Below are positions 9,154 through 32,271 of a DNA stretch of 64,000 nucleotides, in pieces. The translations under genes and the position numbers were made by a program. Within the stretch, counting starts at the first letter, position 1, and each line of letters opens with the position of its first letter. Origin of the DNA: Terriglobia bacterium (GTDB lineage Bacteria; Acidobacteriota; Terriglobia; Terriglobales; Acidobacteriaceae); assembly GCA_963797725.1 (NCBI GenBank), contig CAWCQR010000009.1, forward strand, positions 206,769-270,768, written 5' to 3'. The notes below the pieces were generated by a model. It searched no databases. It saw only the letters and a program-made list of their open reading frames with translations, and was not told where the DNA came from.

Positions 9154-9288
9154 GCGGGGACTTCAAGCTAACGGGACAATAGGTGATTCTTGCGGAAGCC
9201 AGTGCGGGCAGGTATCCGGTTTTGGGTAGTCTGAGATCAGTGACAGGCCTGTGCGTTATGCGGAGAATCGAGGGAGCGTTTCGGTCCT

Positions 9289-10537: not shown

Positions 10538-12505
10538 ATGACGTTTGTAGATTTCACTCGCTCGTCCTTCCGCAATTTCGGCCTGGGGGTCTCGTTATTT
10601 TCCACCGTGTTGAACCTGGTGGGACCGCCTAGCCTCGCTGCCCAAACCGCGCCCGCGGCTGCGACACCAATTCAGCACGTAATCATCATCATTGGTGAAA
10701 ATCGCAGCTTCGACCACGTCTACGCCACCTACAAGCCCAAGCACGGAGAGAAAGTGTCCAATCTGCTCTCCCGACACATCATCAATGCCGACGGTACGCC
10801 CGGCGTCAATTATCTGGAGTCAGCGCAATACAGTGCGGTTGACACATCCGAGTTTGATCTCGCCGCTCAGGGCAAAGCTATTTACGGAGATATTCCGGCG
10901 CCACTGGCTGGCGGCGCAACAACGGCAAGCGATACGGCTCCAGCACCCTTCGCTACTCTGAGGGTTGCGAAAATCGCGGAACCCGATTTGTTTCACACCT
11001 ACAACAAGTTCCTGACCACCGGTGCGACCGGTTTGGCCTTTGGTGTGGTCGACACGCGGATCAACAATGTAAACAACCTTGGGCAGGGAGCTTTCCAGCT
11101 TACTCCTGGGGTCAAATACGACGATTATGCGAACAGCCCGGTCCACCGCTTTTATCAGATGTGGCAGCAAATAGATTGCCACGTGGACTATGCCACCCCA
11201 AACAATCCCAGTGGGTGCTTGAGCGACCTTTTTCCGTGGGTCGAAACCACGATCGGGGCAGGCAGCAATGGCAAGCCTCAGCCGTCGCCCTTTACTAACC
11301 TGACCACCGGTGAGGGTTCGACCGCGATGGCGTTCTATAACGTTCAGCAGGGCGATGCTCCTTACATGAAGGAGCTTGCTGACCAGTTCACGCTTAGCGA
11401 CAACTTCCATCAATCATTTCAGGGTGGCACCGGTGCGAACCACATCATGTTCGGATACGGCGATGCGATGTGGTACAGCGACGGGAAGGGAAACGCCCTG
11501 ACCCCAGCCACTAACCAGGTCGAAGATCCGAATCCACAGGCTGGAACCAACAACTACTACGCTGAAGATGGATACGGCGATGCGGATGGAACCGGCGGCG
11601 GAAGCTACAGCGCTTGCGCCGACATCAGTCAACCCGGCGTAGCGCCGGTAGTGAATTACCTTCAATCGCTGGCGACACCTGTCGATCCCCGCTGCGAAAC
11701 CGGAAAATACTACCTGCTGAACAACTACAATCCCGGTTTCAACGGCGACGGAACCCTGACCAGCCAGTTCTCGCCATTCACTATTCCACCTACGTCACAA
11801 AAACACATTGGTGATTCGTTGTCCGCCGCTGGCCTTTCCTACACATACTTCGGCGAAGGCTGGGACCTCTACCAAACAGACCCAACCGGAGCGAACCCCT
11901 ACAACGCGTATTGCAACATTTGCAATCCGTTCCAGTACGCGACTGACGTCATGACCGATCCGACCCAGCGCGAAGCCCACATCCAAGACACAAACACCTT
12001 GTATGAGGACATCGATCTGGGAAGTTTGCCGGCGGTTTCAATCGTTAAGCCGAGCGGATTCGTGGATGGCCATCCGGCATCCTCGAAACTTGACTTGTTC
12101 GAAGGGTTCGTTAAGAAAATCGTGAAGAGCGTTCAGGCCAACCAGAAATTGTGGCAGAGCACTGCGATCTTCGTCACGTTTGACGAAGGTGGCGGCTACT
12201 ACGATTCCGGTTACATCCAGCCAGTGGACTTTTTTGGCGACGGCACCCGCATTCCGCTGCTCGTCATCTCTCCTTATTCCACGGGCGGCCACATGAATCA
12301 CGGCTATGCCGATCACGTTTCTCTGATCAAGTTCATTAACAGGAACTGGAACCTGAAACCGATCACCAGCCGGACGCGTGATAATTTCCCCAACCCGATC
12401 ACAACCAAGAAAAATCCCTACGTGCCTACGAATAGTCCAGCACTGGACGATTTGTTTGACGCGTTCACCTTTCCACAAGCCACCGCAGCAGTAACGAAGC
12501 CGTAA
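10538..12505 (+). CDS. secreted phosphoesterase family protein (phospholipase C / AcpA acid phosphatase family)
   Basis: 655 aa. Signal peptide, then HVIIIIGENRSFDHVY, the hallmark of the phosphoesterase family. GGAGA lies 8 nt upstream of the ATG. Confidence 0.85.
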   Translation: MTFVDFTRSSFRNFGLGVSLFSTVLNLVGPPSLAAQTAPAAATPIQHVIIIIGENRSFDHVYATYKPKHGEKVSNLLSRHIINADGTPGVNYLESAQYSAVDTSEFDLAAQGKAIYGDIPAPLAGGATTASDTAPAPFATLRVAKIAEPDLFHTYNKFLTTGATGLAFGVVDTRINNVNNLGQGAFQLTPGVKYDDYANSPVHRFYQMWQQIDCHVDYATPNNPSGCLSDLFPWVETTIGAGSNGKPQPSPFTNLTTGEGSTAMAFYNVQQGDAPYMKELADQFTLSDNFHQSFQGGTGANHIMFGYGDAMWYSDGKGNALTPATNQVEDPNPQAGTNNYYAEDGYGDADGTGGGSYSACADISQPGVAPVVNYLQSLATPVDPRCETGKYYLLNNYNPGFNGDGTLTSQFSPFTIPPTSQKHIGDSLSAAGLSYTYFGEGWDLYQTDPTGANPYNAYCNICNPFQYATDVMTDPTQREAHIQDTNTLYEDIDLGSLPAVSIVKPSGFVDGHPASSKLDLFEGFVKKIVKSVQANQKLWQSTAIFVTFDEGGGYYDSGYIQPVDFFGDGTRIPLLVISPYSTGGHMNHGYADHVSLIKFINRNWNLKPITSRTRDNFPNPITTKKNPYVPTNSPALDDLFDAFTFPQATAAVTKP

Positions 12506-12542
12506 CGAGGTAACTGCCGTTTCAATCGCGAGCAGTGACTCT

Positions 12543-12578
12543 GCCGGCCGGGGTAATCCACCCTGGCCGGCGAGTTTT
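12543..12578 (+). terminator. rho-independent terminator after the phosphoesterase gene
   Basis: gccggccgggg (12543-12553), loop taatcca, ccctggccggc (12561-12571). This is an 11-bp stem with one G-U pair, followed by gagTTTTg. Confidence 0.6.
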
Positions 12579-12618
12579 GAATAGTGATTTTTATCATCTT
12601 TAAGTTTGGGAGTTATCT

Positions 12619-13113
12619 GTGATCAAACGCTTTTTATCTCTCGCTCTTCTCTTAACTGTTTCAGTAGCGACCCTATCGGCGAGTGGCGCGCATTCTTCTG
12701 CCGATGACCATGTTTCGAGCGTAGCCGGAAAATGGACGTTATCGTGGCAGGCTCGTTTGGGGACCGAAGATGCAATCGTGGAGTTAGAACAGGACGGCTC
12801 CAAATTGCGCGGAAGGTTCCACGATCTGCATCACTCCTGCCCGGTGTCTGGCACAATCGAGGGCATTAACATTTCATTCGACGTGTTGTTTGAAGAAGCT
12901 CGGCCATTCACGATCGCCTTCAAAGGCACCGTAAATGGCGATAGCATTAGCGGCACATCGCAGGCGCAAAATATCGGTGGCACCAAAGCGTACCTCGGGC
13001 ATGGAGGAGAAATCGTCCAACCAGAACACCCTTGGACCGCGACGCGCCCCGGAGATCCACCAAGCCTAAGAACTCAAGAGACAAAAGCAGGCACCCCCGG
13101 AGCTTCGAACTGA
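12619..13113 (+). CDS. small secreted hypothetical protein (beta-rich, His/Cys patch HDLHHSCP)
   Basis: 164 aa. GTG start with GGGAG upstream and a signal peptide (LLLTVSVATLSASGA). Lies directly upstream of the multicopper oxidase on the same strand. Confidence 0.6.
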   Translation: MIKRFLSLALLLTVSVATLSASGAHSSADDHVSSVAGKWTLSWQARLGTEDAIVELEQDGSKLRGRFHDLHHSCPVSGTIEGINISFDVLFEEARPFTIAFKGTVNGDSISGTSQAQNIGGTKAYLGHGGEIVQPEHPWTATRPGDPPSLRTQETKAGTPGASN

Positions 13114-13207
13114 CCCCGGCGACAAGGTTCGCTGTAACGGGCAGCCTGCGCGCAAATCTTTGGGCAAACTTTCCCGAAATGTTTCCCAATATCGGCCAAT
13201 CAGAAGC

Positions 13208-14908
13208 ATGACAGTGAACAGGCGCGACTTGTTGCGAATGGGTCTGTGCGCAGGCACAGGTCTTCTCCTACCTAAGCCGAAGGCTTTTCAAGCTTTTGCG
13301 AGAGCAGTTGATCAACCGCAAGGAGCAGCGAAGCTCGCGAGTTACGTCGATCCGCTGCCGGTCCCGCCGATTATCCGGCCATCCTCTGCCCCAGGACAAG
13401 TGGTCCAGGTGCGCATGGGCGAATTCCGCCACAAAGTGCACCGTGATCTACCTCCGACCAGCCTTTGGGGTTACAACGGAATGTGGCCTGGACCCACCTT
13501 CGAAGTCCGTCGAGGCCAAGGCTTGTCCGTCAAGTGGACGAACCAATTGCCCACGAAACACTTCCTCCCGATCGACACCACAATTCACGGATCTGAGGAG
13601 ACGGTTCCACAAGTGCGTACTGTCGTCCACGTGCACGGAGCGAGGGTATTGCCTGAGAGTGACGGCTACCCCGACGCCTGGGTCACTTCCGATGGCAAAA
13701 GCGGACCCGTAAGCGGCGCTAGTCCTGCTCACTATCCCAACGATCAACGAGCCGCCACGCTCTGGTATCACGACCATGCGTTGGGAATTACGCGATTGAA
13801 TGTCTATGCAGGTTTGGCGGGCATGTACCTGATCCGCGATGAAGAAGAAGACGCATTAAACTTGCCCAGCGGCGCGTACGAAATTCCCTTGCTTCTGCAG
13901 GACCGCAAATTTAACCCCGACGGATCACTGCTTTATCCTGCGGCGCAAAATGGCACTCATCCTATCTGGATCCAGGAATTCTTCGGGGACACGATCTGTA
14001 TCAATGGCAAGGCCACGCCATTTCTTGAAGTCGAGCCGAGGAAGTATCGATTTCGCCTAGTTAACGGTTCCAACTCCCGGTTTTATCATTTGACACTGGT
14101 CCCTGCCGACAGCAACGGTAAACCCACCGGGAAACCAGCCGAGGCGCCGCCATTTCATCAGATCGGAACCGATGGTGGCCTGCTACCAGCTCCCGTGAGC
14201 CTGCACTATCTGATTGCCTCCCCTGGCGAGCGTTTCGACCTGATCTTGGATTTTACGGACCATAAGGGCGCTCACTTTGCTCTGATTAACGATGCTCCAG
14301 CTCCATATCCGCGCGGCGGAGAAATTGTTCCATCTGACTGCATGTTGTTCAAAGTGACGAAACCACTCTCGGGAACAGATACAAGTTTGCTTCCAGACAC
14401 ACTCACACCGGTATCGCCGCTGAGTCCGTCTCTTGCGGCTAAAGAAAGAACACTGGCGCTGACTGAAATGGATCGCCCGTCCGACGGCTACACCATGATC
14501 GGTTTGCTCGGTCAGAAACACTGGGATGATCCGATTACAGAAGACCCAAGAGCAGGCTCAATTGAGGTTTGGTCTTTTGTGAATGCTACAGGCGATGTTC
14601 ACCCCATTCATCTTCACCTCGTTCAATTTCAGGTGCTGAATCGCCAGCCGTTTGATGTGAAGACCTATGTGCAAACGGGGAAGCTGGTTTTCACTGGCAT
14701 TCCGATGCCCCCGGAATCCAACGAGCGTCCGGGTTGGAAAGATACGGTCAAAACTTACGCGGGATACGTGACCCGTATCATTCAGAAATTCGACCTGCCA
14801 GAGGGAACGCCGACAACACCAGGCCAGGAATTCCGTTACGTCTGGCATTGCCACATTCTGGAGCATGAAGACAATGAAATGATGAGGCCTTACAAGATCG
14901 TGTCCTAA
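13208..14908 (+). CDS. Tat-exported three-domain multicopper oxidase (CotA / bilirubin oxidase-like)
   Basis: Copper ligand motifs VHVHGA, LWYHDHA, HPIHLHLVQF and WHCHILEHEDNEMM. Twin-arginine signal MTVNRRDLLRMG. The track ORF begins at TTG 13160; ATG 13208 is preferred because it begins the Tat signal. Confidence 0.9.
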   Translation: MTVNRRDLLRMGLCAGTGLLLPKPKAFQAFARAVDQPQGAAKLASYVDPLPVPPIIRPSSAPGQVVQVRMGEFRHKVHRDLPPTSLWGYNGMWPGPTFEVRRGQGLSVKWTNQLPTKHFLPIDTTIHGSEETVPQVRTVVHVHGARVLPESDGYPDAWVTSDGKSGPVSGASPAHYPNDQRAATLWYHDHALGITRLNVYAGLAGMYLIRDEEEDALNLPSGAYEIPLLLQDRKFNPDGSLLYPAAQNGTHPIWIQEFFGDTICINGKATPFLEVEPRKYRFRLVNGSNSRFYHLTLVPADSNGKPTGKPAEAPPFHQIGTDGGLLPAPVSLHYLIASPGERFDLILDFTDHKGAHFALINDAPAPYPRGGEIVPSDCMLFKVTKPLSGTDTSLLPDTLTPVSPLSPSLAAKERTLALTEMDRPSDGYTMIGLLGQKHWDDPITEDPRAGSIEVWSFVNATGDVHPIHLHLVQFQVLNRQPFDVKTYVQTGKLVFTGIPMPPESNERPGWKDTVKTYAGYVTRIIQKFDLPEGTPTTPGQEFRYVWHCHILEHEDNEMMRPYKIVS

Positions 14909-19911: not shown

Positions 19912-21222
19912 CTACTGTTGCTTGCCAGGCGCGCGAACTCCCTCAATCCAGACTGAGTCGATCGCGCGAGTGTTCTTGATGTCGTCGAGGGGATTCGCAG
20001 ACAGCACAAGAAAGTCAGCGGCCTTGCCTTTTTCCAGTGTGCCCACCTGCTCACTTATGTTTAGCGCTTGGGCTGCGCCGCTGGTTGCTGACATCAATGC
20101 CTGCATTGGAGTGAGGCCCGCCTTGGTCTCGTATTCCAGTTCAAGGTGCTCGAAGTAACCCTGAAACCGGCCCGGTCCACCTCCGCTGTCGGTGCCCATG
20201 GCGATCACGATGCCCGCGTCGGAAAGCTTCTTGAGATTGCGCATAGCGACCGGAAGATGATCCTTGTACCAGAGCGCCCCGGAATCCTGGCGAATGGTGT
20301 CCTGACGCTTAGGATCTTTCATCTTCGCGATTTCGGCGGGATCGGCCTCTTTCAGGAAGAAAGGGTCGCTGAAGAAACCCGGCGTTTCTGAATAGGTGAA
20401 GACCGCCAACTCCCGAGTGAGAGTTGGCGAGTAAAACGCGTGCCGATTCTTCATGAGGCCGATAAATTCTTCATCTACTTCCCGGTCACGGACGCTGTGG
20501 GCAATATAATCCACGCCGGCGCGAAGCAGACCTTTTGCGTCGTCGAGAAGAACCACGTGTGCCGCGGTCCGATAACCATTCTTGTTCGCTTCCTTTATGA
20601 CCGCCCGGTAAACCTCGGGACTCATCTTCAGGCGCGCGCCAAGAAAATCATCAACACGAACTTTGACGATGTCAGGCTTGTTGAGAATTAATTCATCAAC
20701 GCTCTTTCGCGCTTCCTCCGGAGTCTTGACGGCGACTGCTCCAGGAATCACGGTCGAGTCTTGTATCAGTCCCGCGACATACAAGCGTGGCGCCGTTCCC
20801 GGAGGAGCATTTCGGCTCTGTTCCCGCAACGCAAATTCCTTGTCGCCTCCCAAGCTGAGGATGGTAGTGATGCCGTCGCGCAGATAAACTCCGAACTGCG
20901 CCGCATCGCTGACATGGCAGTGCGCACAGATCAAACCAGGAATGATGGTCTTTCCCGTCGCGTCGATCCGTTCCGCACCGGACGGTATCTTTACCCGTTT
21001 GCCGGCAGCGACGATCCGCCCATTGCGAACTACCAGCGTCGCATTTTCCAATGGAGGCTTGCCTGTGCCGTCGATGATGCGTGCACCAATCCACGCCTGG
21101 ACGGTGTGATTAGCGGGAGTTTCACTCTGTTTCGCATCGGTTGCTGAAGCTTGCAATGTAATAAGAAGGAGAGCAACTGCAACCACGAGCTCGCGGACTG
21201 GTCTGTTCTTAGCAGGAGTCAT
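19912..21222 (-). CDS. secreted metal-dependent amidohydrolase family protein
   Basis: 436 aa. Signal peptide, HxH motif in GLICAHCHVSD, and a C-terminal ADFLVLSANPLDDI pattern typical of amidohydrolase_1/3 proteins. Confidence 0.85.
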   Translation of the reverse strand: MTPAKNRPVRELVVAVALLLITLQASATDAKQSETPANHTVQAWIGARIIDGTGKPPLENATLVVRNGRIVAAGKRVKIPSGAERIDATGKTIIPGLICAHCHVSDAAQFGVYLRDGITTILSLGGDKEFALREQSRNAPPGTAPRLYVAGLIQDSTVIPGAVAVKTPEEARKSVDELILNKPDIVKVRVDDFLGARLKMSPEVYRAVIKEANKNGYRTAAHVVLLDDAKGLLRAGVDYIAHSVRDREVDEEFIGLMKNRHAFYSPTLTRELAVFTYSETPGFFSDPFFLKEADPAEIAKMKDPKRQDTIRQDSGALWYKDHLPVAMRNLKKLSDAGIVIAMGTDSGGGPGRFQGYFEHLELEYETKAGLTPMQALMSATSGAAQALNISEQVGTLEKGKAADFLVLSANPLDDIKNTRAIDSVWIEGVRAPGKQQ

Positions 21223-21286: not shown

Positions 21287-21757
21287 ATGAAAATAGTTCC
21301 CGTGGTTGTTTTACTGCTCGCATCCGCGATGTGGCTGCACGCGGCCGACCCCGATGGTTTCGGTCTCTGGAAGGGGGAAACCATCCAAAATTCCGGAAAA
21401 CAGTTGGCCAGCAAGATTGACGATCAGAAGTTCGCGTTTCTGTCGCTTGGCACCTATCAAAACCACTTGATGGGAGTTGCTCATCGTGAAGGCGACGGTA
21501 GCGCTGAACTTCACGAGACTCAAGCGGATGTCATGGTCGTAGAAACAGGCGAAGCGACGCTGGTCGTCGGAGGGACGATAGTCGATCCCAAGACAGTGAA
21601 ACCTCACGAGGTGAGAGGTTCGTCAATTCAGGGTGGAGAGATCAAACAGCTTGCGGTCGGTGACGTCGTGCACATACCCGCCAAAGTACCCCATCAGTTG
21701 AAAATTGAAAGCGGCAAGACGTTCACCTATCTTGTCATTAAGGTAGATACGAACTAG
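21287..21757 (+). CDS. secreted single-domain cupin protein
   Basis: GDVVHIPAKVPHQL is cupin motif 2-like. Signal peptide MKIVPVVVLLLASAMWLHA. ATG 21287 with GGAG 8 nt upstream is preferred over the track start 21248. Confidence 0.65.
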   Translation: MKIVPVVVLLLASAMWLHAADPDGFGLWKGETIQNSGKQLASKIDDQKFAFLSLGTYQNHLMGVAHREGDGSAELHETQADVMVVETGEATLVVGGTIVDPKTVKPHEVRGSSIQGGEIKQLAVGDVVHIPAKVPHQLKIESGKTFTYLVIKVDTN

Positions 21758-21809
21758 ATGTCGCGCGGAGCGTAAGGTTTATGCCTCAGGAGCCTGACAC
21801 AGGAAAAGC

Positions 21810-22595
21810 TCAGGCCGTCTCTTCGCTTTTTTCAGGAGCGGTCGCTGCAGTTGCGGGTAGCGTTGCGGCGGCTTCTCCCGCGGTCTGGAGGATGTGAGCA
21901 TTGCGCTCCGCAGCTTGCAAGTGCCCCCGCATCGCGTGGCGCGCTTTTTCCGGATTGTTTTCGCGGATGGCCCGGTAAATTGCCCAATGCTGGCGGAGTC
22001 CGGCTTCTGGCACTCCTGGCATTTCGTTCGTGCGCCGGCTGACTTCAATCAGGGGCTCGGAGATCGCCTGCAGAACCATAATCGCGAGAGGATTTCTCGT
22101 GGCCTCCGCCACCGCTTTGTGAAATCGGATGTTCGCCTTCCCGATGGCCTCGTGGAAAAGCAAGTCAGCATGCGGAGTGCTGCGGTCCATTCGAAGCGCG
22201 GCTTCTTGTTCTGCCAGAACTTCCCGCATCGCCGCCCAATCGGCTTCCGTTGATTTTTCTGCGGCCAGGGCTACCAGACCCAGCTCCAGAACTTTACGAA
22301 ACTCAATCAAAGAGTCCGCCTGTTGCATGAAGGCAGAAGTGGATAGATATTCAGCATTGATCAAAGCAACAGGCGAAGGCTCGAGGACGACAGCGCCAAT
22401 CTTTGGCCGGACACTGATCAGTTGAAGAGATTCAAGAGACTTGATTGCTTCGCGAACGCATGTCCTGCTAACGGAGAGTTCTTCGGTAAGCTGTTTCTCT
22501 GTCGGCAACCGCTCGCCCGGCTTGACTTGCCCTTTTCTTATCAAATCAAGAATGTAGGTGATTACCTGGGCAGTAATCGTCTGTCTGCGGATCAG
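21810..22595 (-). CDS. GntR family (FadR-subfamily, FCD domain) transcriptional regulator
   Basis: wHTH LPTEKQLTEELSVSRTCVREAIKSLESLQLI and a helical C-terminal FCD-like domain. The track start (TTG 22544) would remove the first wHTH helix. The frame is open up to CTG 22595-22593, which has GGAGG 6 nt upstream. Confidence 0.8.
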   Translation of the reverse strand: MIRRQTITAQVITYILDLIRKGQVKPGERLPTEKQLTEELSVSRTCVREAIKSLESLQLISVRPKIGAVVLEPSPVALINAEYLSTSAFMQQADSLIEFRKVLELGLVALAAEKSTEADWAAMREVLAEQEAALRMDRSTPHADLLFHEAIGKANIRFHKAVAEATRNPLAIMVLQAISEPLIEVSRRTNEMPGVPEAGLRQHWAIYRAIRENNPEKARHAMRGHLQAAERNAHILQTAGEAAATLPATAATAPEKSEETA

Positions 22596-22747
22596 GCTGT
22601 ACCTCCAGCACTACTTACAACGCAAGGAATAGGCGACTTGCTCATACTATAGCACTATTGGATTGGAGCAGTTTTGACTGGAGAAGCGACCTTAGAGACC
22701 GGCTGGAAGCGTGATCCGCGAGAACTAAAACTGTCCCCTTCATGGAG

Positions 22748-23803
22748 TTACGGCTTGAATGCAAGAACGGCGTCGAGTGGCGCTCCGGTTATGCGACCTT
22801 GTATGTTTCGAAAGCCGGCATCTTCAAGGAGTCGGCGATATTCGCCGAGTGTGTGTTCCTTACCCTCAGTGCACACGAGCATATTCAAGGACTGAAGTTG
22901 GGCCGAGATCGGGCCCGTTCTATCCTCCAGGAGCAGTTTTTCGGCGATCAAAATGCCGCCGCCAGAAGGTAAATGTTTAAAAATATTAATGAGGAGTTTC
23001 ACGATCTTGTGCTCGGCCCAATCGTGGAGAATACGCGATATAACGAATAGATCTGCCTCGGGAAGTTCGTCACGGAAGAAATCGCCCGCCATTACTTCGA
23101 TGCGATTCGAGGCTGTCGATTGTCGTGCCTCCTTGAGCGCGCTCTCAATCACCTGCGGCAAATCGAACACTACCGCCTTAAGTTCGAGATAGTGTTCGCA
23201 GGCTGCAATTGCCAGATGACCGGTGGCGCCGCCAAGGTCAACCAGTCGCCTGAATCGCGAGAGGTCGAACGCTCCTACCACTTTCGGTGAACTCAGCAAT
23301 CCCAACCCGTGCATGCCCTGGATGAATGTTTGCTTGGCCTCTTCGGTGCGAAAGAAATGATCGAAAATTCCACCCTCAATGCCGAAAGATTGTTGCCAGC
23401 GGGGAGTTCCTTCGCGAACTGCGTCGTCGAGGTGGCTCCAAAGGGGAAACAGGACATCGTTGGAATAGAGAATATATCCCGTCAGCGCGTGCTTGCTGTT
23501 CCGGCACAGATAAGTACTTGCTACTTGTTCATTTTCGTACGCAGCCGCGTGTCGCCGTAAGAGCTTGAGACCTACGCAGGCGTCCAGCAACCTTTCAACC
23601 GCATCGGTTTCGGTGTGCAATTCCGCGGCGATCGCCTTGAGGTCGCGCGGCTTGTCTTCCAACAAGTCGAACACGCCAAGCGACACCGCCGTGAACATTG
23701 TCTTCGAACGGCGAAAAGCTTCAATCAGATTAATGATCGGTGAAGGATCGGCGGGCAGGGAGGAATCGGAAAAGTCCATGTGTGCTTTGCACCGCGCACG
23801 CAA
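22748..23803 (-). CDS. class I SAM-dependent O-methyltransferase (COMT/ASMT-like, with N-terminal dimerisation domain)
   Basis: 351 aa. SAM motif LVDLGGATGHLAIA. An N-terminal winged-helix-like dimerisation region. ATG at 23779 is an alternative start. Confidence 0.85.
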   Translation of the reverse strand: MRARCKAHMDFSDSSLPADPSPIINLIEAFRRSKTMFTAVSLGVFDLLEDKPRDLKAIAAELHTETDAVERLLDACVGLKLLRRHAAAYENEQVASTYLCRNSKHALTGYILYSNDVLFPLWSHLDDAVREGTPRWQQSFGIEGGIFDHFFRTEEAKQTFIQGMHGLGLLSSPKVVGAFDLSRFRRLVDLGGATGHLAIAACEHYLELKAVVFDLPQVIESALKEARQSTASNRIEVMAGDFFRDELPEADLFVISRILHDWAEHKIVKLLINIFKHLPSGGGILIAEKLLLEDRTGPISAQLQSLNMLVCTEGKEHTLGEYRRLLEDAGFRNIQGRITGAPLDAVLAFKP

Positions 23804-23815
23804 CGCGTGCTTTAG

Positions 23816-24493
23816 CTACTCCATTTTATTGCGGGCAGCTTCAAGGATACGTTTGGCACGAGATGGATTGAAAACTCCGCAGGAACAGAATCGCGCCATG
23901 TAGGTGACCGCCTGCTCAGGTGTGCGGCGCCCTTCTTTCACCCAGTCAATCATCTTTTTACCCATGCTGCTCGAAATCATGCCATGGCCGCACATGGTCG
24001 TCAGTTCCAGTATTTGGGTATTTGGCAGCTTTTCAAGCTTGCCTTCAAATCCGAGTGAGTAGCCGATGCTGTGAGGAGCGATACCTGCAAACTTGCAGCA
24101 CTTTTGAGCGCCTTCGATGGACGCTGAAATATTTACCGAGAGACCGAGGTCGGCTTCCTTCACGACCTTCAAAAAGTTCTCCGCCGCTGCCAGGTTGTCA
24201 AACACCGCGGCGACCGACGCGGGTTCGTCGATCCCGTCGATGACCGCTCGAAGGTGAGGTTCGACGTCGCGATGCCAATGCGACGCGATAGTCTCCTTTC
24301 GCGAGGGTCTGAGCGCGCCGCCATGTGGAGGATCCCCGATGTTTACGGGTTTGAAGGGCAAAGCCATCTCCAGAAATTTCTTCAGCTTGGGAATGCTGCC
24401 CTGGTCGTTCTTGCCCTTGCTGGGGCTCGCGAAGACGATGTAATCATCCTCAAAGCTTTGCGCATTCCCATAACGATGGAGAGTGTTGGTCAT
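23816..24493 (-). CDS. Cys-rich hypothetical protein (225 aa), family not recognised
   Basis: Protein-like composition. Cys motifs KCCKF, TMCGHGM and FCSCGVF. Its start overlaps the stop of the upstream 4Fe-4S gene by 4 nt. Confidence 0.7.
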   Translation of the reverse strand: MTNTLHRYGNAQSFEDDYIVFASPSKGKNDQGSIPKLKKFLEMALPFKPVNIGDPPHGGALRPSRKETIASHWHRDVEPHLRAVIDGIDEPASVAAVFDNLAAAENFLKVVKEADLGLSVNISASIEGAQKCCKFAGIAPHSIGYSLGFEGKLEKLPNTQILELTTMCGHGMISSSMGKKMIDWVKEGRRTPEQAVTYMARFCSCGVFNPSRAKRILEAARNKME

Positions 24494-25332
24494 AGGACCG
24501 CCACGCCAACTTTCGAAAGCTCTTCCACCTCGTTGGTCACCCTGCCCATGCCAGTATTTGTTTTGGCCCTTTCGAGCCGGTATCCCAGACCTCGCAGAAT
24601 TGGTGCCACAACGTGTTCCTCGCCGTTTTCGTCGCAGCGTGTGCCGACGCCGAGAGAGACGACACTATCAATGTCCTTCTCGAGCTCATGGACAAGCTGA
24701 ACGATTTCCTCGGTGCGATGGACCGGAACTTTGATTTCTACGATCGCAGAAAGGATTTTCTCGTCGAGTATGTCCTCTCGCAAATCGCCCGTGACGACAT
24801 CACTCATCAGCAGAGTCAGGGGATTATTTTTTTCGAAAGGGACATGCGCCATCGCCAACGCTCGAGTCATTTTCTGAATGTCGCGAAAGCGTACGCCGAC
24901 CCCGGGCCTCCCGAATTCGATGGTAAAGCCAACTTCTCCTTGCTTTACTCGCTGGGTCACGTCGTTGGTCTTGACCTCCTCCGTCCCGCGGCCTTGCACT
25001 CCGGTAGATTCGTGGGTCGCGCGTGGATCGGAAAATGCGCGCCGGACCACGCGCGGCCACTGCAATTCTTCTGGCTCAAAGGCAGCCGTTGGGCAGATGT
25101 CCGGCTCCGGGTCGAATCGCAGGCGTACCAACTGAAATAGCTTGCGAACGGTACGTACGAGGACAGGGTTCAGGCGCTCTGAGCTCAACCCGTAATAGCA
25201 GGCGTAACACTCGACACACTCGTTCCGGTCCACCGTGGCGCGGTTGATGCCGGGGTCAACATAAATGGCGCCCACTGGACATACATAGACGCAGTTTCCG
25301 CATGCCACACACTTATCGGGGTTGATCTTCAT
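24490..25332 (-). CDS. 4Fe-4S dicluster domain protein with an uncharacterised C-terminal region of about 200 aa
   Basis: 280 aa. CVACGNCVYVCP and CVECYAC ... ICP cluster motifs at the N-terminus. The rest looks like two beta-alpha-beta (ACT/NIL-like) units, judged by eye only. Confidence 0.8.
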   Translation of the reverse strand: MKINPDKCVACGNCVYVCPVGAIYVDPGINRATVDRNECVECYACYYGLSSERLNPVLVRTVRKLFQLVRLRFDPEPDICPTAAFEPEELQWPRVVRRAFSDPRATHESTGVQGRGTEEVKTNDVTQRVKQGEVGFTIEFGRPGVGVRFRDIQKMTRALAMAHVPFEKNNPLTLLMSDVVTGDLREDILDEKILSAIVEIKVPVHRTEEIVQLVHELEKDIDSVVSLGVGTRCDENGEEHVVAPILRGLGYRLERAKTNTGMGRVTNEVEELSKVGVAVL

Positions 25333-25420
25333 GACTTAGGCTTTGGCAGACAAACCCGGCGGGAGGGCTGGTCTAGCTATAGTCATATAATAGCATAACA
25401 GTTAAGTATGCTTGCTTGGC

Positions 25421-26707
25421 TCATGAGACGGCCGGGTCCCAGGCAATCTTTCTATCCGCGTTGATTCCCAGGCTCAATGCTGCGCCGCCCAGACAAAGAA
25501 ACGAGCACACCAGAAAAGGCACGTTCCAGCCGTACAGTCCGACCAAATACGCCAATAGGACGGGAGACACGGCACTTCCCAGATTGCCGAACGTGTTCAT
25601 GACCGAGGCGACTGAACCGGCATAGTCTCCTCCGATATCAAGCGGGATTGCCCATGACACTCCGACCGTCACCTCCAGACCAAAAACAGCCACGCAGGAA
25701 TATAAAACCGAAGCCGTGGAGTGCTGCGTGAACGTGGCCGGGAGGATGAAGACCGCAGCCAGAAGAAAGCCCGCCAGCGCGACCGCGCGGCGCGCGAGCT
25801 TCAGATTTCCGAAACGCTTCGCGCAACGATCCGACACGGTACCGCCCAATAAATCTCCGGCGGCGCCCGCCAGCAAAGGCAGGCTGGCATAAATGCCCAT
25901 CTGCGTCAGGTTGAAACCACGGTGTTCGTTCAGATATTTCGGGAACCAGTCCAGATAAATATCGATGCTATAGCCGTAGCAAAAATACATCAGTGAAAGC
26001 GTCCACAGCGAGGGGCTTCGAAGAATGCGACGCCACGGCACTGCTCGCACGCTTGTATCGCGGATGCCGATCGAATCTTCAATCAGCTGGCGTTCGGTTG
26101 GGTTGATATGGGAGTGTTCTGAGGGCGTATCGCGGTAGTACCAGTACCATGCCGCCGACCAGCCCAGCCCAATGAGTCCGAATACGAAAAATGGGGTGCG
26201 CCATCCAAACCTGATCATCATCATGACGACGAGCGCCGGGGTTAGTGCCGCACCCAAACGTGAAGCTGCGTGGGTGATCCCTTGGGCGAAGCCGCGCTCG
26301 GTCGGCAGCATCCATCGTGAAAGTGATCGGGTCGCAATGGGAAATGCTCCAGCCTCGCCCACTCCGAAAAAAAATCGGAACACTCCCATCGATGTTGCGT
26401 TCCAAGAAAATGCGGTCAGAGAGGTAAACACCGACCACCAAACGACGACCAGGGCGAGTGCGCGCCGTCCGCCGATTCGGTCTCCCAGCCAGCCGCCAGG
26501 AATCTGAAAAAAAGCATAGCCCCAACGGAAGGACGCGAAAATCCAACCAATTGTGATCATCGAAAACCCCATGTCTTTTTGGATCACAGGCACCGCGGAC
26601 GCAATATTCACGCGGTCCATATACGTGATCATGTAGGCGGCGACGATCAGGGCAAGTACGATGTGGCGAGTATGCGACGGGCGGGCAGTAGTCGCGGGTT
26701 CAGTCAT
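25421..26707 (-). CDS. MFS transporter, anion:cation symporter (ACS) type
   Basis: 428 aa with 12 predicted hydrophobic segments. GWLGDRIGGRRAL loop motif. Confidence 0.9.
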   Translation of the reverse strand: MTEPATTARPSHTRHIVLALIVAAYMITYMDRVNIASAVPVIQKDMGFSMITIGWIFASFRWGYAFFQIPGGWLGDRIGGRRALALVVVWWSVFTSLTAFSWNATSMGVFRFFFGVGEAGAFPIATRSLSRWMLPTERGFAQGITHAASRLGAALTPALVVMMMIRFGWRTPFFVFGLIGLGWSAAWYWYYRDTPSEHSHINPTERQLIEDSIGIRDTSVRAVPWRRILRSPSLWTLSLMYFCYGYSIDIYLDWFPKYLNEHRGFNLTQMGIYASLPLLAGAAGDLLGGTVSDRCAKRFGNLKLARRAVALAGFLLAAVFILPATFTQHSTASVLYSCVAVFGLEVTVGVSWAIPLDIGGDYAGSVASVMNTFGNLGSAVSPVLLAYLVGLYGWNVPFLVCSFLCLGGAALSLGINADRKIAWDPAVS

Positions 26708-26745
26708 TTAAGATGGCGATCTTTTCAGGTCAACTGATTGGCGAT

Positions 26746-27225
26746 CTAGAAAACTATCCGATTTTTTTGACGCTCGATCTTTTCCATTTCGAGGCCTGGG
26801 ACTTTGGTTAAGTCCTGCCATTCCTTAAAAGCCCCATTTTGTTCGCGGTAGGAAACGATCGCGGCAGACTCTTTTGAAGACAGGCCAAGGGCATCAGCCA
26901 ATTGGACAGCGGTTGCCTTGTTCACATTGACGGATTGGCTGCGGTGCTGACTCTCACTGTGCGCTGCCAGAACCTTGTCGGTGCCGAAATTTTTTGCCAG
27001 GTAGTCCACGACGGTTTCGATGTCCTCGTCGGGCACGTCGGCCCCTCGCGAGACCATCTGGTCGACCAGTGCGGCCCATTGTTCCTTGGTCGCCCTCTTT
27101 GACGTGACTACCTTCAGCTCGTGACATCCCGCACACTCGCGCTGGACGATATCGCTGCCTTTGCCGGGAGGAAGGCTTGGAGCGTTAGCGGCAAGCGCGA
27201 GATAAACCAGAGTCGTCCATACCAT
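26746..27225 (-). CDS. secreted haem-c (CxxCH) domain fused to a ComEA/PsbU-like helix-hairpin-helix domain
   Basis: 159 aa. Signal-like N-terminus. RECAGCHELKVVTSKRATKEQWAALVDQMVSRGA resembles the QH-AmDH-type haem-binding domain. VNVNKATAVQLADALGLSSKESAAIVSYREQNGAFKEWQDLTKVPGL is a ComEA-type HhH. Confidence 0.7.
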   Translation of the reverse strand: MVWTTLVYLALAANAPSLPPGKGSDIVQRECAGCHELKVVTSKRATKEQWAALVDQMVSRGADVPDEDIETVVDYLAKNFGTDKVLAAHSESQHRSQSVNVNKATAVQLADALGLSSKESAAIVSYREQNGAFKEWQDLTKVPGLEMEKIERQKNRIVF

Positions 27226-27280
27226 GTCAGTCTGCCTGTCCTAGCTGCAGAGAATATTTCAAGTGCCCGTCATTCTGCCG

Positions 27281-27314
27281 CGAGAAAATTCATTCTACGA
27301 GAAAATTCATTCTA
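27281..27314. repeat. perfect tandem duplication of a 17-bp unit (cgagaaaattcattcta x2) in the intergenic region
   Basis: Read directly: 27281-27297 equals 27298-27314. A further cattct lies at 27271-27276. Located between the BKACE stop (27353) and the haem-c/HhH start (27225). Confidence 0.9.
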
Positions 27315-27352
27315 GATGATGCGCACGAGATTCGTTGATTCCGAACTCATAT

Positions 27353-28342
27353 TTAGTACTGACTTGGTTGGCTGCGAAGCCCAAGAATGGCGCGAGCTTG
27401 AGCTGGAGTCGCGACTGGCCGGTTCAGTTCTTGCGCGATACGAACGGATCGCTGCACGAGTTCGGCATTGCTTTTCGCTTTTCGGCCGCGCGAATAGTAG
27501 ACGTTGTCCTCGAGTCCGACTCGGACGTGCCCACCCATCAAAGTCGCGAGAGTTGTCAGTGGAAGTTGAAACGGGCCAATCGCTGAGCACAACCACAATG
27601 CTCCCTCGGGGAACTCCTTGAGAAGCTGCAGAATATTTTCAACCGTCGGGAAACTGCCGGTTTGATAACCCATCACGGTCTGCATCCAATAGGGCTTTTC
27701 GATCAGATTATTTTCGACCAGATAATTTACAACCCACGCGCAGCCGGGATGATAGAGCTCCAATTCTGGTTTGATTTCGCGTTGTTTCATCTCGGCGGCG
27801 AATTGATGAATCTGTCCGTAGGTAAATGGAATGCATTCGTCGATTTCCACGGCAGGATGGGGAAAAGGCAAGGGCGGGCGCCGTTCCTTGAGCTTGAACT
27901 TACTCATATCCGGTGCCAGATTGAGCGAAGCAACTTCCGGCCCCGCTGCAAGACAAGCAGCGCGTTCTTCCATACTCATCCCCGGACCCGCGCCGGTGGT
28001 CGCATTGATGATAATTTCAGGGCATCGCAAGCGAACCTTCCGCAGCACCTCGCGCCACGTTTCAGTTTCGCGCGCGCCCTGGGTGAGTTGTTGCGGGTCG
28101 CGAGCGTGAATGTGGACCATCGCAGCTCCCGCGTCGTAGGCGCCCTGCACGGAGACCGCAATCTCTTCTGCTGTTTCCGGGATGGCTTCGTTCGCTTCCT
28201 TGCCCTGGATCCCGCCATTACAGGCGACACAAATGATCAGCGGAGGCATTCCCCCGCGAACTCTTTCCATGAATTCATGGCTGTCGGTGTAGTGAAAGCC
28301 GGCCGGCTGCTGGGGCGGATCTGGGCGCTCTTTTTCGGACAC
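27353..28342 (-). CDS. 3-keto-5-aminohexanoate cleavage enzyme family (BKACE, DUF849) protein
   Basis: 329 aa. PLIICVACNGGIQGKEANEAIPETAEEIAVSVQGAYDAGAAMVHIHARD is the typical BKACE N-terminal TIM-barrel signature. Confidence 0.85.
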   Translation of the reverse strand: MSEKERPDPPQQPAGFHYTDSHEFMERVRGGMPPLIICVACNGGIQGKEANEAIPETAEEIAVSVQGAYDAGAAMVHIHARDPQQLTQGARETETWREVLRKVRLRCPEIIINATTGAGPGMSMEERAACLAAGPEVASLNLAPDMSKFKLKERRPPLPFPHPAVEIDECIPFTYGQIHQFAAEMKQREIKPELELYHPGCAWVVNYLVENNLIEKPYWMQTVMGYQTGSFPTVENILQLLKEFPEGALWLCSAIGPFQLPLTTLATLMGGHVRVGLEDNVYYSRGRKAKSNAELVQRSVRIAQELNRPVATPAQARAILGLRSQPSQY

Positions 28343-28756
28343 AGGACTCCTTTTTTCAGGTCACACTCTTTTAATCGATTGTTTTCGCTCTTGCATCAGC
28401 GATGGTGTTGAGTCCAAGTCCAGCAGATGATGCTCCAGAACGATGGATACTCATCGCGCCAAGCCTCTATGAATAAACGAGACTGTCTCAAGCCAACAAG
28501 CGAAATAGTACGAAACAGTTATTCGAACGGGATAGTTATTCGCGCCGAATGATCAGCGGCTCGTAGTTCAGGTTCGCACATTCTGCCAACCCACGGCATG
28601 GTGCGGTTCGCTTGAAAGAACCATGACAGTCATTAGAAAACACGCGAATTGATCGATCGCCGCTAAATGTGAAGCTTGCGCGATAGTTGTAAGGCGGTGT
28701 AGTCTCCCCGGAAGAGAGCAAGTACTCGCCGGCCAGTTGAGCTTCTGCCAACGACC

Positions 28757-30469
28757 ATGATCAAAAATTTTGTGTCCGCAACCGCGAACCCTCCCCAATC
28801 CCTAGCATTGGGAGCGGCCACGGACCGTTTGGATTCCTGGAAGGAAATTGCATGCTATCTGCGGCGAGAGGTTCGCACGGTCCAGCTTTGGGAGAAGAGG
28901 GAAGGGCTGCCGGTTCATCGTCATTTTCACAAAAGCCTGGGCAGCGTCTTTGCTCTGCGTTCCGAAATCGATCGGTGGAAGCGAAAGGTTTCACGGGAAA
29001 TTTCCGACCCTGACGCCGACTTAGCGGCGCTCGCCAGGTCCTCGAAGGGTGTGGGAGACCGTGTAACGATTTACGTGCTGCCATTGAAAAATGTAACTGT
29101 CAGCAGTGAGCGCCGGCATCTTTGCGACAGCATCGTTGCGAAGACGGTTGCTGCCCTGGAGGAGGTCAACCCCGGGAAACTTGGAATTGTGAGTCCGAAG
29201 TTTCCTGTACAGCCAGAATCTGGGGAAGTCCCTCCCGCGATTTCGAATGACGCCAAGGTTGATTACTTATTGCGATGGAGCATTCAGGATGATGGAGCCG
29301 GCCTGCGGGTGAATGTCGCGCTCTTGTTTGCCGGGACGGATGCGGTTGCCTGGTCTCACACATACAGTTGCCGCCCCAGCGATTTTGGCGATCTGCCCGG
29401 TTATATAGCTGACCAGATTGTTCAGTGCCTTTGGCTGAAAGTATTTTCGTCTTTGGCGTCCGCTCCCGGCGCGGCTTGCCGTGAAAAGCCCGGTTCGCGT
29501 GAGGCGTATTTAAAGGGCCGCTACTTCTGGAACCAGCGCAACGAGGGAGGGCTGCGGAAAGCCATTCATTGTTTCGAGTCAGCGATCCGCGAAGATCCAG
29601 AGTTCGCACTGCCTTATTCGGGTCTCGCAGATTCCCTGACGCTGCTCTCATTTTATGAGATCGTCTCGCCTTCAGAAGCGATGCCATCAGCGCGGCGCGC
29701 CGCGCTGAAAGCGATCGAACTGGATCCGAATCTGGCCGAAGCACACGCCTCCCTGGCGGATGTTCTTCTGCACTTCGATCGGGATTGGCCGGCAGCCGAT
29801 CATGAATACCGCCGCTCCATTCAATGCAATCCAGACTACGCGCTTGGCTACCACTGGTATGCGAACCTGCTTGCAGCAAGAGGACAGCATGAGGCTGCGC
29901 ACATCGCGATCATGCACGCTCTCGAGATCGATCCGGTTTCAATCATCACACTGGTCTGGGCCGGCGTGACATCTCACCTGGCACACCAGTTCGATGAAGC
30001 GATCAAGCACTATCAAAGTGCTCTGGAACTCGATCCTCAATTTATCTGGGCGCACATGTACATGGCCCAGGCACTTGAGCAGAAGGGCAACTTCAAAGAA
30101 GCGCTCAGAGAATTCGAAACGACGACCCGCCTGGCCGGCGGCAATAATTGCGTGAAGGCCATGACCGCTCACGCGCATGCGGTAGCGGGCGACAAATCTT
30201 GTGCGCGGGAAATTTTAGACGAACTGCAGGGAGTGCCTTCCCAGTGCATGCCGTCGTATGACATTGCTGCGACCTATGCCGCACTTGGCGATTCGAATCA
30301 AACTGTCGCGTGGCTTAACCGGGCTTGTGATGAGCGGAACATGAAATTGTTCACACTGACACAAGATCCGCGCTTTGATGCCCTCCGCCACCGTTCCGAG
30401 TTCAAGGAAGTTATCGAACAGATGGGACTCAAGCAATATAGCCCGTCGCGCGGACGCAGGCGCCAATAA
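28757..30469 (+). CDS. regulatory-type protein: N-terminal HTH-like segment, TolB-N-like domain and C-terminal TPR repeats
   Basis: 570 aa. SWKEIACYLRREVRTVQLWEKREGLPVHR. Several TPR units (AIELDPNLAEAHASLADVL, ALELDPQFIWAHMYMAQAL). Confidence 0.8.
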   Translation: MIKNFVSATANPPQSLALGAATDRLDSWKEIACYLRREVRTVQLWEKREGLPVHRHFHKSLGSVFALRSEIDRWKRKVSREISDPDADLAALARSSKGVGDRVTIYVLPLKNVTVSSERRHLCDSIVAKTVAALEEVNPGKLGIVSPKFPVQPESGEVPPAISNDAKVDYLLRWSIQDDGAGLRVNVALLFAGTDAVAWSHTYSCRPSDFGDLPGYIADQIVQCLWLKVFSSLASAPGAACREKPGSREAYLKGRYFWNQRNEGGLRKAIHCFESAIREDPEFALPYSGLADSLTLLSFYEIVSPSEAMPSARRAALKAIELDPNLAEAHASLADVLLHFDRDWPAADHEYRRSIQCNPDYALGYHWYANLLAARGQHEAAHIAIMHALEIDPVSIITLVWAGVTSHLAHQFDEAIKHYQSALELDPQFIWAHMYMAQALEQKGNFKEALREFETTTRLAGGNNCVKAMTAHAHAVAGDKSCAREILDELQGVPSQCMPSYDIAATYAALGDSNQTVAWLNRACDERNMKLFTLTQDPRFDALRHRSEFKEVIEQMGLKQYSPSRGRRRQ

Positions 30470-32237: not shown

Positions 32238-32271
32238 TTGACAACCAGCATAAGGTTCTATTATATGACAA
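32238..32271 (+). promoter_or_regulatory. candidate promoter/operator upstream of the TonB-dependent receptor (TTGACA plus an AT-rich box GGTTCTATTATATGACAA)
   Basis: TTGACA at 32238-32243. The AT-rich box at 32254-32271 contains TATTAT and TTATAT 15-17 nt downstream. About 225 nt upstream of the ATG. Confidence 0.3.

Follow-up and report, generated by a model that had tools for sequence, protein, structure and literature searches.

A conserved gene pair for a ferredoxin-headed protein and a small cysteine-rich protein, possibly the two subunits of an undescribed Fe-S oxidoreductase, in a Terriglobia genome

A 64,000-nt stretch of a Terriglobia bacterium genome (assembly GCA_963797725.1, contig CAWCQR010000009.1; hereafter the window, whose numbering is used for all positions) contains adjoining genes for a 280-aa protein headed by a ferredoxin domain (Fd280) and a 225-aa cysteine-rich protein (P225), followed by a gene for an O-methyltransferase (OMT). 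We find that Fd280 and P225 constitute an ancient and tightly coupled gene pair, of which no published account was found in literature searches. We propose, at about even chances, that they are the two subunits of a cytoplasmic Fe-S oxidoreductase that belongs to no described family and whose substrate is a hydroxy or oxo acid taken up by the cell.

Residues 1–90 of Fd280 form a 2x[4Fe-4S] ferredoxin domain with cysteines C8, C11, C14, C18, C39, C42, C45 and C80. The first motif, C8-x2-C11-x2-C14-x3-C18-P, matches PF00037 at 40.1 bits against a cut-off of 21.1, and the Pfam models Fer4_10 and Fer4_7 also exceed their cut-offs. All eight cysteines, C80-P included, are invariant in an alignment of 58 diverse homologues (34–89% identity), which together with the Pfam models bears out the N-terminal 2x[4Fe-4S] motif of the initial annotation. 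That annotation also called the protein atypical, with its last cysteine displaced by about 45 residues. C80 in fact lies 35 residues past C45, with a 29-residue insert that is present in the Terriglobia clade and a few other members. Because the eight cysteines are invariant and the second motif of most family members is an ordinary CxxCxxCx(3-5)C that has no insert, we regard the domain as a normal dicluster domain with a clade-specific insert, predicted to carry the ligands for two [4Fe-4S] clusters. Clostridial-type 2x[4Fe-4S] ferredoxins have both cysteine motifs in common with Fd280, which differs from them by the insert and in that the domain makes up only about a third of a protein whose remainder has no relatives.

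That remainder, residues 90–280 (∼190 aa), matches no family, in agreement with its initial description as unassignable. Fd280 matches only ferredoxin models in Pfam and NCBIfam, and only over residues 1–46; its PDB sequence matches are limited to the ferredoxin domain, and source databases name its homologues simply as ferredoxins. In the 58-homologue alignment the tail nevertheless contains about 25 invariant residues, mainly charged or polar, including R94, R97, H107, G114-R-G-T-E-E119, K121, E139, G141-R-P143, E167, N170, P171, S195, E199 and K257, and conserved motifs GRGTEExKT, ExGRP, FExxNP, LSAIxE and NGKxN. An AlphaFold2 model of Fd280 (pLDDT 85, pTM 0.81) has no PDB fold match at E ≤ 0.001 by Foldseek (best E 0.023), the weak matches being to generic ACT/PII-like beta-alpha-beta sandwiches and to its own ferredoxin domain.

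P225 gave no Pfam, NCBIfam or PDB sequence match, either as a single sequence or as an 85-member profile. Across these 85 sequences R7, C168, G169, C203 and C205 are invariant, and M1, T2, H6, G9, D17, H141, H170, N209 and R212 nearly so. Three cysteine motifs had been singled out initially; two of them, MCGHG (C168 and H170) and CxCG (C203 and C205), are invariant or nearly so, whereas the cysteines of KCCKF are not conserved. The C168-G-H170 ... C203-x-C205 arrangement is a candidate metal site. The P225 start is secure, because the N-terminal sequence MT(H/N)TLHRxG is conserved across the whole family. The AlphaFold2 model (pLDDT 92.5, pTM 0.90) has no PDB fold match at E ≤ 0.001 by Foldseek (best E 0.06, TM-score below 0.3), and here too the weak matches are generic beta-alpha-beta sandwiches (ACT, PII, dimeric alpha/beta barrels). 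Fd280 and P225 are not homologous to one another in an alignment-versus-alignment comparison. Pfam and NCBIfam scans of both proteins and of the 85 P225-family members returned ferredoxin models only, and natural fusions of P225 with other 4Fe-4S dicluster domains exist (P0331, P0366). The HMM and Foldseek searches suggested in the initial annotation, run here with Pfam, NCBIfam and PDB sequences and profiles, thus agree with its view that neither protein can be placed in a characterised family.

Both families are large, with more than 5,000 clusters each at 90% identity in public data, a figure for the Terriglobia clade alone, and 687 clusters of P225 at 50% identity overall. The best 120 clusters are 74–100% identical to the window proteins and are named just 'hypothetical protein' or 'ferredoxin'. 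Scanning species-representative genomes with a query-derived pattern yielded 60 loci, all in Terriglobia metagenome-assembled genomes (MAGs), which cover Terriglobales, Bryobacterales, Sulfotelmatobacter and Korobacteraceae. Metagenomes were scanned with a 12-sequence P225 alignment as the query. Members at a greater distance belong to Negativicutes (Anaerosporomusa, Sporomusaceae), Neomoorella humiferrea, Desulfitobacterium, Thermodesulfobacteriota and Methylomirabilales, or derive from sediment and gut metagenomes. The pair is found mostly in anaerobes. The initial annotation had left open whether the pair exists beyond this genome; it is strongly conserved elsewhere.

The two genes also stay together. 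A ferredoxin-type gene lies directly upstream of P225 in 64 of the 73 loci with upstream DNA (80 diverse metagenome loci plus others), and several of the exceptions are artefacts of open reading frame (ORF) calling or tandem P225 paralogues. Of 104 junctions between the two genes, counted over all fetched loci, 36 have the four-nucleotide overlap and 71 have a gap of no more than 5 nt. Within the phylum, for which a sample of 301 genomes was searched and absence means not found among those, P225 and the Fd280 tail were each detected in two genomes only, the same two for both, and are adjacent there. In the P225 tree the Terriglobia form a tight subclade (terminal branches 0.04–0.16, against a family median of 0.68) that is nested with good support among non-Terriglobia sequences; the Terriglobia copies are a young, rare subclade, a picture that fits either recent expansion inside the class or constraint of unusual strength. 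No homologue of the pair was found in a plasmid collection by tblastn.

Several loci depart from the simple two-gene arrangement. Tandem P225 paralogues (Fd-P225-P225) followed by a LarA-type nickel-pincer isomerase gene are seen in L114, L141 and L153; L141 contains two full pairs and one extra P225, and L121 and L101 have two pairs each with separate transporters. The tandem pairs and paralogues suggest substrate diversification. In the otherwise syntenic long-read MAG loci L056, L057, L059 and L060 the P225 or Fd280 matches are split or partial, which may reflect assembly frameshifts or real gene decay.

Outside the Terriglobia, neighbouring genes were clustered over diverse loci and representatives annotated (∼140 loci together with those of the Terriglobia). 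TctABC, TRAP DctPQM or major facilitator superfamily (MFS) transporters are present in about 24 of the 55 longer distant loci. The commonest enzyme neighbours are Amidohydro_1 proteins (13 loci), HIBADH or L-threonate-dehydrogenase-like proteins (11) and PCC/DUF296 proteins (7), followed by PF04199 cyclase-type amidases (6, with a duplicate removed), PanB (6), LarA-type nickel-pincer isomerases (5), OadA/PycB with IMPase (4) and FGGY kinases (4). HpcH/HpaI and RraA-like aldolases, CoA-transferase III, D-2-hydroxyacid dehydrogenases, AOR and PFOR are less frequent. Gene orders such as GntR-PanB-Fd-P225-HIBADH-amidohydrolase-PCC and Fd-P225-DctPQM-amidohydrolase are typical. Those PanB and IlvD neighbours that were scanned exceed their NCBIfam cut-offs, and a genuine IlvD lies beside the pair in L064. 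PFOR is directly upstream of the pair in L104, and L160, the closest non-Terriglobia relative, has a gene for a GlcD-like flavin adenine dinucleotide (FAD) oxidase in that position. The pair comes last in an operon of Anaerosporomusa, Neomoorella and a related metagenome, after genes for CooF-like, CooS-like Prismane and PadH-like NADH flavoprotein components.

This five-gene CooF-like/Prismane/PadH-like/Fd/P225 operon occupies positions 1997–6636 of L064, 5560–10383 of L074 and 7011–11569 of L075. Its Prismane protein has 486–505 aa and resembles carbon monoxide dehydrogenase at the N-terminal cluster motifs only (73 bits against a cut-off of 478). A gene for a PrpR_N sigma-54 activator is divergent upstream in L075 and on the same strand just upstream in L064/L065, and none was seen in L074. 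No prismane gene is present in the genome of the window organism.

Evidence for the proposed oxidoreductase includes the consistent pairing of the two genes described above. Strict conservation of the relay domain, fusions of P225 to further dicluster domains, and operons shared with NADH flavoproteins, CooF, PFOR, AOR and GlcD-like proteins argue for an electron-moving enzyme. The Fd280 tail, whose invariant residues are largely cationic and acidic, and the invariant start of P225 would suit an active site for an anionic substrate, and TctABC, TRAP and MFS transporters adjoining the pair point to a carboxylate. Hydroxy/oxo-acid chemistry is favoured because most of the neighbouring enzymes make, racemise or consume 2-hydroxy or 2-oxo acids (LarA, GlcD, D-2-hydroxyacid dehydrogenase, IlvD, PanB, pyruvate-type aldolases, OadA and PFOR) or free an acid from an amide. 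The two [4Fe-4S] clusters of Fd280 would relay electrons to or from a third metal centre, which P225 would hold through Cys168, His170, Cys203 and Cys205, with a soluble or partner redox protein at the other end of the chain. The active site would be built from the invariant Arg, Lys, Glu and His residues of the Fd280 tail together with the P225 N-terminus, and its substrate would be a carboxylate brought in by the adjacent transporter. The likeliest chemistry would be the interconversion of a 2-hydroxy acid and a 2-oxo acid independently of nicotinamide adenine dinucleotide (NAD), in either direction, making the pair a functional analogue, though no homologue, of LutABC or GlcDEF. At the PanB loci, an amidase might free pantoate from a pantothenate-type amide, the pair might oxidise it to ketopantoate, and PanB might then act in reverse.

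There are parallels with LutABC/YkgEFG (LldEFG), a multi-subunit, NAD-independent Fe-S system for the 2-hydroxy acid lactate. LutB begins with a 2x[4Fe-4S] ferredoxin-like domain, joined to a second domain whose chemistry is otherwise obscure, LutABC has a second, small Cys-rich subunit, and genes for a carboxylate permease and a GntR/FCD regulator accompany the system; the pair as proposed and its surroundings in the window are alike in these respects. However, LutABC has three subunits rather than two, the CGH ... CxC pattern of the pair differs from its cysteine pattern, and Foldseek detects no shared fold. Neither a LUD/DUF162 nor a CCG domain was found in Fd280, P225 or the 85 P225-family members (Pfam, E ≤ 0.01). 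GlcDEF and Fe-S-linked D-2-hydroxyacid dehydrogenases likewise have Fe-S subunits that take up electrons from 2-hydroxy-acid oxidation, and in L160 a GlcD-like gene immediately precedes the pair, but the pair has neither an FAD_binding_4 nor a CCG domain and most loci, the window included, have no GlcD-like gene.

The range of redox enzymes that adjoin the pair across lineages could be read differently, with Fd280 and P225 as an electron-transfer or adaptor module that wires GlcD-like oxidases, CooS-like proteins, AOR or PFOR to a redox pool and performs no catalysis of its own. The lack of any recognisable cofactor- or substrate-binding motif and the naming of Fd280 homologues as ferredoxins only are both in keeping with this. 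We nonetheless consider it quite unlikely. The parts of the proteins outside the ferredoxin domain are the most conserved, and the roughly 25 invariant polar residues, many of them Arg, Lys and Glu, are of the type expected of an anion active site; many loci, including that in the window, have only a transporter and no other redox enzyme nearby; and the tandem pairs and P225 paralogues suggest that substrates have diversified.

The amidohydrolases and HIBADH-type dehydrogenases beside the pair recall nicotinate fermentation. The 6-hydroxynicotinate reductase (Hnr) of Eubacterium barkeri (EC 1.3.7.1) is reportedly ferredoxin-dependent, with two [4Fe-4S] clusters and one further cluster; to our knowledge its catalytic part has no Pfam family and no solved structure. 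Hnr consists of one chain (about 490 aa) and has an ApbE-like partner, and its pathway continues with an amidohydrolase and a HIBADH-type dehydrogenase, an order that resembles the gene order beside the pair. The pair might by analogy be a ferredoxin-dependent reductase of a double bond in an amide or N-heterocyclic carboxylate, feeding an amidohydrolase and then a HIBADH in the manner of Hnr, enamidase and Hgd. Amidohydro_1 (13 loci) or PF04199 proteins (6) occupy equivalent positions beside the pair; in 11 loci a HIBADH-type gene comes after the two, pair-HIBADH-amidohydrolase being a frequent order; the HIBADH neighbour matches 3CKY, the E. barkeri 2-(hydroxymethyl)glutarate dehydrogenase, at E 2.7e-68, albeit level with tartronate semialdehyde reductase; the PFOR upstream of the pair in L104 could supply reduced ferredoxin; and amidohydrolases are also found near the pair in Bryobacterales and in the window. 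Against this, the neighbouring amidohydrolases are of the prolidase/carboxypeptidase type rather than enamidase-like, and the enamidase 2VUN is not among their PDB matches; those of the Terriglobia carry signal peptides and so cannot follow a cytoplasmic reductase; two thirds of the loci have no amidase; and neither an Hnr-type ApbE-like UPF0280 partner nor a molybdenum hydroxylase is among the recurrent neighbours in the ∼140 loci, with no such hydroxylase seen in the annotated loci at all. The more specific idea that the pair is a split Hnr was rejected, as hhalign gave homology probabilities of 0.8% with the Fd280 profile and 0.4% with the P225 profile, using a single Hnr-like sequence (P0511, from this genome) rather than an Hnr profile. 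On balance we regard a reductase of this kind as improbable.

The window organism has its own Hnr-type nicotinate-degradation cluster, which was located through the DUF1185 family on contig C21 (L159, 1–19001), outside the window. It includes a FAD subunit gene (13489–14430), a fused [2Fe-2S]/molybdopterin hydroxylase gene (10700–13507) and an 828-aa ORF (8320–10806) that combines, in frame, an Hnr-like Cys-rich part and a UPF0280/ApbE-like domain (NF003322, 394 bits, residues 529–810). Two tandem DUF1185/AA_synth genes, an ACS (anion:cation symporter)-type MFS gene and an amidohydrolase gene are also present.

In the Terriglobia the pair is part of a module that adjoins genes of periplasmic sugar oxidation. 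An MFS gene is the commonest neighbour, accompanying the pair in 37 of the 60 loci. Nearby genes in these loci encode pyrroloquinoline quinone (PQQ) dehydrogenases (17), 7-bladed lactonases (15), cytochrome c-GSDH proteins (13), secreted bicupins (15, with 37 copies), secreted amidohydrolases (14) and FAA-hydrolase-family proteins (8). The module has been reshuffled or split without loss. P225 has no adjacent Fd280 in 13 of the 60 loci, and in all five such orphan-P225 genomes that were tested Fd280 is on the same contig, 12–25 kb away, in three of them within an MFS-Fd280-OMT block; in one genome an Fd280-P225 pair exists apart from an MFS-P225-OMT block. The module is rare and mobile, an accessory set in which the pair is accompanied by a DgoT-like MFS importer and an ASMT-like OMT. 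Its substrate would probably be a hydroxy acid, of the aldonate type or another, that periplasmic sugar oxidases produce and the DgoT-like importer takes up.

Lone P225 genes (8001–8678) lie between cytochrome c-GSDH and PQQ dehydrogenase genes in L010–L012, L016, L017, L022, L031 and L034. An MFS-Fd280-OMT block is located 12–15 kb from the lone P225 on the same contig in L010, L012 and L031, and in most of the remaining genomes of this list only the OMT gene was located at that distance.

This sugar-oxidation context is shared with IlvD and Edd, Fe-S dehydratases of aldonates and dihydroxy acids, and the main rival to the proposed oxidoreductase is that the pair is an Fe-S hydro-lyase for sugar or hydroxy acids. 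P225 would then hold a cluster with an open iron for binding the substrate, like IlvD/Edd, serine dehydratase or tartrate dehydratase, and the ferredoxin domain would serve just to maintain or restore its redox state. P225 has exactly three invariant cysteines, the usual count for a substrate-binding cluster, and two-subunit organisation is known from the Fe-S dehydratases TtdAB and SdaAA/AB. Sugar dehydrogenases, lactonases, an aldonate-type importer and FAA-hydrolase genes are found together in the Terriglobia loci, with no recognisable aldonate dehydratase in the fetched flanks, and aldolases for 2-keto-3-deoxy or 4-hydroxy-2-oxo acids neighbour the pair in distant loci. However, neither protein resembles any known dehydratase: searches for IlvD/Edd, UxaA/GarD, class I fumarase/tartrate and serine dehydratases gave no Pfam or NCBIfam match and no PDB fold match by Foldseek, and IlvD/Edd have no ferredoxin relay domain despite their similar catabolic context of sugar dehydrogenase, lactonase and aldonate permease. 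The conserved relay domain, the dicluster fusions and the operons with NADH flavoprotein, CooF, PFOR and AOR imply a net flow of electrons, and in L064 the genuine IlvD is already at hand beside the pair. A hydro-lyase therefore seems unlikely to us.

Several observations weigh against an Fe-S oxidoreductase of hydroxy or oxo acids. There is no homologue with a known function; the neighbourhoods are heterogeneous (amidases, sugar kinases, CooS-like proteins), with no pathway common to all loci; and the neighbour tallies given above derive from our own crude ORF calling on loci that were selected by pattern and are partly related to each other. Fd280 and P225 contain no recognisable flavin or nicotinamide site for hydride chemistry, the 3Cys+His site of P225 could be structural zinc, and the 64-kb window has no gene for a redox partner of the pair. 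We presume from its class that the window organism is aerobic, and the family is otherwise found mainly in anaerobes. Finally, ASMT-like O-methyltransferases normally methylate phenolic hydroxyls, and by this analogy the OMT would fit a sugar-acid substrate poorly compared with a phenolic one.

A further-reaching version, which we hold to be rather doubtful, is that the pair founds an Fe-S enzyme family with two new folds, whose reaction would be an NAD-independent, carrier- or ferredoxin-linked oxidation of 2-hydroxy acids, aldonates and pantoate-type acids among them. If so, the pair would be the missing cytoplasmic step that links periplasmic PQQ-, lactonase- and bicupin-based sugar oxidation to central metabolism in soil Acidobacteria, the OMT would act on the same metabolite pool, and anaerobes would be able to ferment hydroxy acids without electron-confurcating systems of the lactate dehydrogenase type. 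Whatever its reaction, this is a large and very highly conserved family with no Pfam model, name or structure, and it adjoins organic-acid importers in hundreds of anaerobes as well as in abundant peat and soil Acidobacteria. Once the reaction is assigned, thousands of gene pairs now named 'ferredoxin' and 'hypothetical protein' would be annotated together, and the metabolism of a class of hydroxy, oxo or amide-bearing acids could come to light; the binding proteins (such as TctC and DctP of L104, L106, L108, L121 and L124) and regulators encoded in the same operons bring the substrate within experimental reach.

The features of the locus are listed in Table 1. The three genes on one strand, the ATGA overlap of the Fd280 stop and the P225 start (read as ...GTC CTA TGA, with the ATG inside it), and the flanking MFS (PF07690) and FCD-containing GntR genes are all as initially annotated, and GC content is even over the region. 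The MFS gene ends 88 nt upstream of Fd280, and the GntR/FCD gene lies ∼150–200 nt downstream of the OMT gene.

Table 1. Features of the Fd280-P225 locus and related sites in the window
Feature	Position	Strand	Remarks
Fd280, proposed alpha subunit	24490..25332	minus	280 aa; ORF call
P225, proposed beta subunit	23816..24493	minus	225 aa; ORF call
ATGA stop/start overlap joining Fd280 to P225	24490..24493	minus	sequence read
ASMT-like OMT	22748..23779	minus	probable start ATG 23779; PF00891 and PF08100
MFS carboxylate transporter	25421..26707	minus	PF07690 219.6 bits; nearest to anion:cation symporter/D-galactonate type
Conserved box TGCTATTATATGAC	25382..25395	minus	∼50 nt upstream of Fd280 start
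Box (T/G)(G/T)(C/A)TATTATATGAC, three matches	25382-25395, 32256-32269, 49365-49378		before Fd280, the TonB-receptor operon and a third unit, respectively
GntR/FCD (FadR-subfamily) regulator	21810..22544	minus	PF07729 89.7 bits; PF00392 57.4 bits
Secreted amidohydrolase, prolidase/Arg-carboxypeptidase subgroup	19912..21222	minus	PF01979 82.7 bits; possible associate, membership uncertain
BKACE (beta-keto acid cleavage enzyme)	27353..28342	minus	PF05853 277.6 bits; unit membership uncertain

The third gene encodes a COMT/ASMT-like O-methyltransferase, as the initial annotation had it, with both a Methyltransf_2 domain (PF00891, 195.2 bits; cut-off 22.3) and a dimerisation domain (PF08100, 79.3 bits; cut-off 25.6). 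Its best PDB relative is human hydroxyindole O-methyltransferase (ASMT, 4A6D; E 5.6e-70, full length), with which it shares the two domains, the S-adenosylmethionine loop and the ILHDW motif. Its own sequence has LVDLGGATG and RILHDW; we take the former to be the glycine-rich S-adenosylmethionine loop and ILHDW to be the region of the catalytic His, a role known from the family. It also matches DsyB (7WDW) at E 2.4e-28, and members of the COMT/ASMT-type family also perform C-, N- and S-methylation. In contrast to 4A6D the OMT is bacterial and linked to an Fe-S pair and an acid transporter, and we know of no such linkage for other ASMT-type enzymes. The longest ORF, 22748–23803, starts at TTG 23803, but because orthologues begin MDSPDSSPVIELIE / MPDPSPVIELIE, the start is probably ATG 23779 (MDFSDSSLPADPSPIINLIE), 36 nt past the P225 stop; the 12-nt spacing given initially applies only to the TTG start.

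The initial annotation treated the three genes as one unit. The pair is universal, whereas the OMT is a Terriglobia-specific associate that is rare in the phylum: orthologues (E ≤ 1e-50) occur in 3 of the 301 genomes, two of which do not have the pair. It is inside 12 of the 60 Terriglobia loci, and was found in all eight orphan-P225 genomes tested, on the same contig as P225 in at least seven, and in 3–4 of five Bryobacterales-type genomes, there on other contigs. The co-occurrence raised initially extends to nearly every tested Terriglobia genome with the pair, but the OMT is absent from all distant (non-Terriglobia) loci; the linkage is real yet lineage-specific. In the two genomes that have the OMT and not the pair, the gene is followed directly by one for a secreted 321-aa protein of no known family (G269; L167, 518–2505) or stands alone beside a likely secreted glycosidase-like gene (G279).

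Given that the OMT is rare in the phylum and yet co-occurs and stays linked with the Terriglobia module, one can imagine a biosynthetic tailoring unit, in which the Fe-S enzyme modifies a small molecule, the OMT O-methylates it and the MFS protein exports it. Natural-product methyltransferases are among the nearest solved relatives of the OMT, and MFS proteins can export. Nevertheless, no biosynthetic core genes are present in any of the ∼60 Terriglobia loci, the MFS protein comes closest to ACS/DgoT transporters, which are of the uptake type, the regulator belongs with the catabolic FadR/FCD proteins, and outside the Terriglobia the pair is found in plainly catabolic operons with binding-protein-dependent importers and no OMT. 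We consider such a unit very improbable. Of the initial suggestion of a redox-dependent small-molecule modification or catabolic unit, the catabolic part is favoured over biosynthetic modification by the context of imported carboxylates in the ∼140 loci.

Neighbours of the module in the window differ in how far they travel with it. The best NCBIfam match of the MFS transporter is TIGR00893 (D-galactonate transporter) at 266.5 bits, below the cut-off of 395, and the two ACS-type MFS transporters of this genome are just 28% identical. In Bryobacterales loci, genes for relatives of the window amidohydrolase with signal peptides (∼40% identity) come immediately after P225, and the Amidohydro_1 copies of distant loci are just 28% identical to it. 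The BKACE gene is syntenic in the nearest relatives (L003–L008, L058–L060) and is also found near the pair in the unrelated L067. The GntR/FCD regulator is syntenic with the module in the nearest relatives only, and its best NCBIfam matches are of the NanR, LldR and GlcC types, all below cut-off. In the ORF starting at TTG 22544 the first residue already aligns with position 12 of the PF00392 profile, such that the first helix is missing; because of this the true start is probably upstream of TTG 22544.

No riboswitch or other Rfam element was found in 21500–29000 and no operator-like palindromes in the intergenic regions, and promoter and terminator scans gave results not above those of shuffles. 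There is, however, a conserved box upstream of Fd280, TGCTATTATATGAC, which eight other MAG loci have at the corresponding position. Resembling an extended -10 element (TGnTATTAT), it suggests that Fd280-P225-OMT has its own promoter, and it may also be a shared regulatory site or the mark of a small regulon. The box has three matches in the window, against 0.12 expected, and GCTATTATATGAC has three matches with no more than one mismatch in the 6.4-Mb genome, two of them in the window. The box at 32256 precedes a TonB-receptor/oxidase/lactonase operon and has a TTGACA -35 hexamer upstream of it, making co-regulation of the module with sugar-oxidation genes possible.

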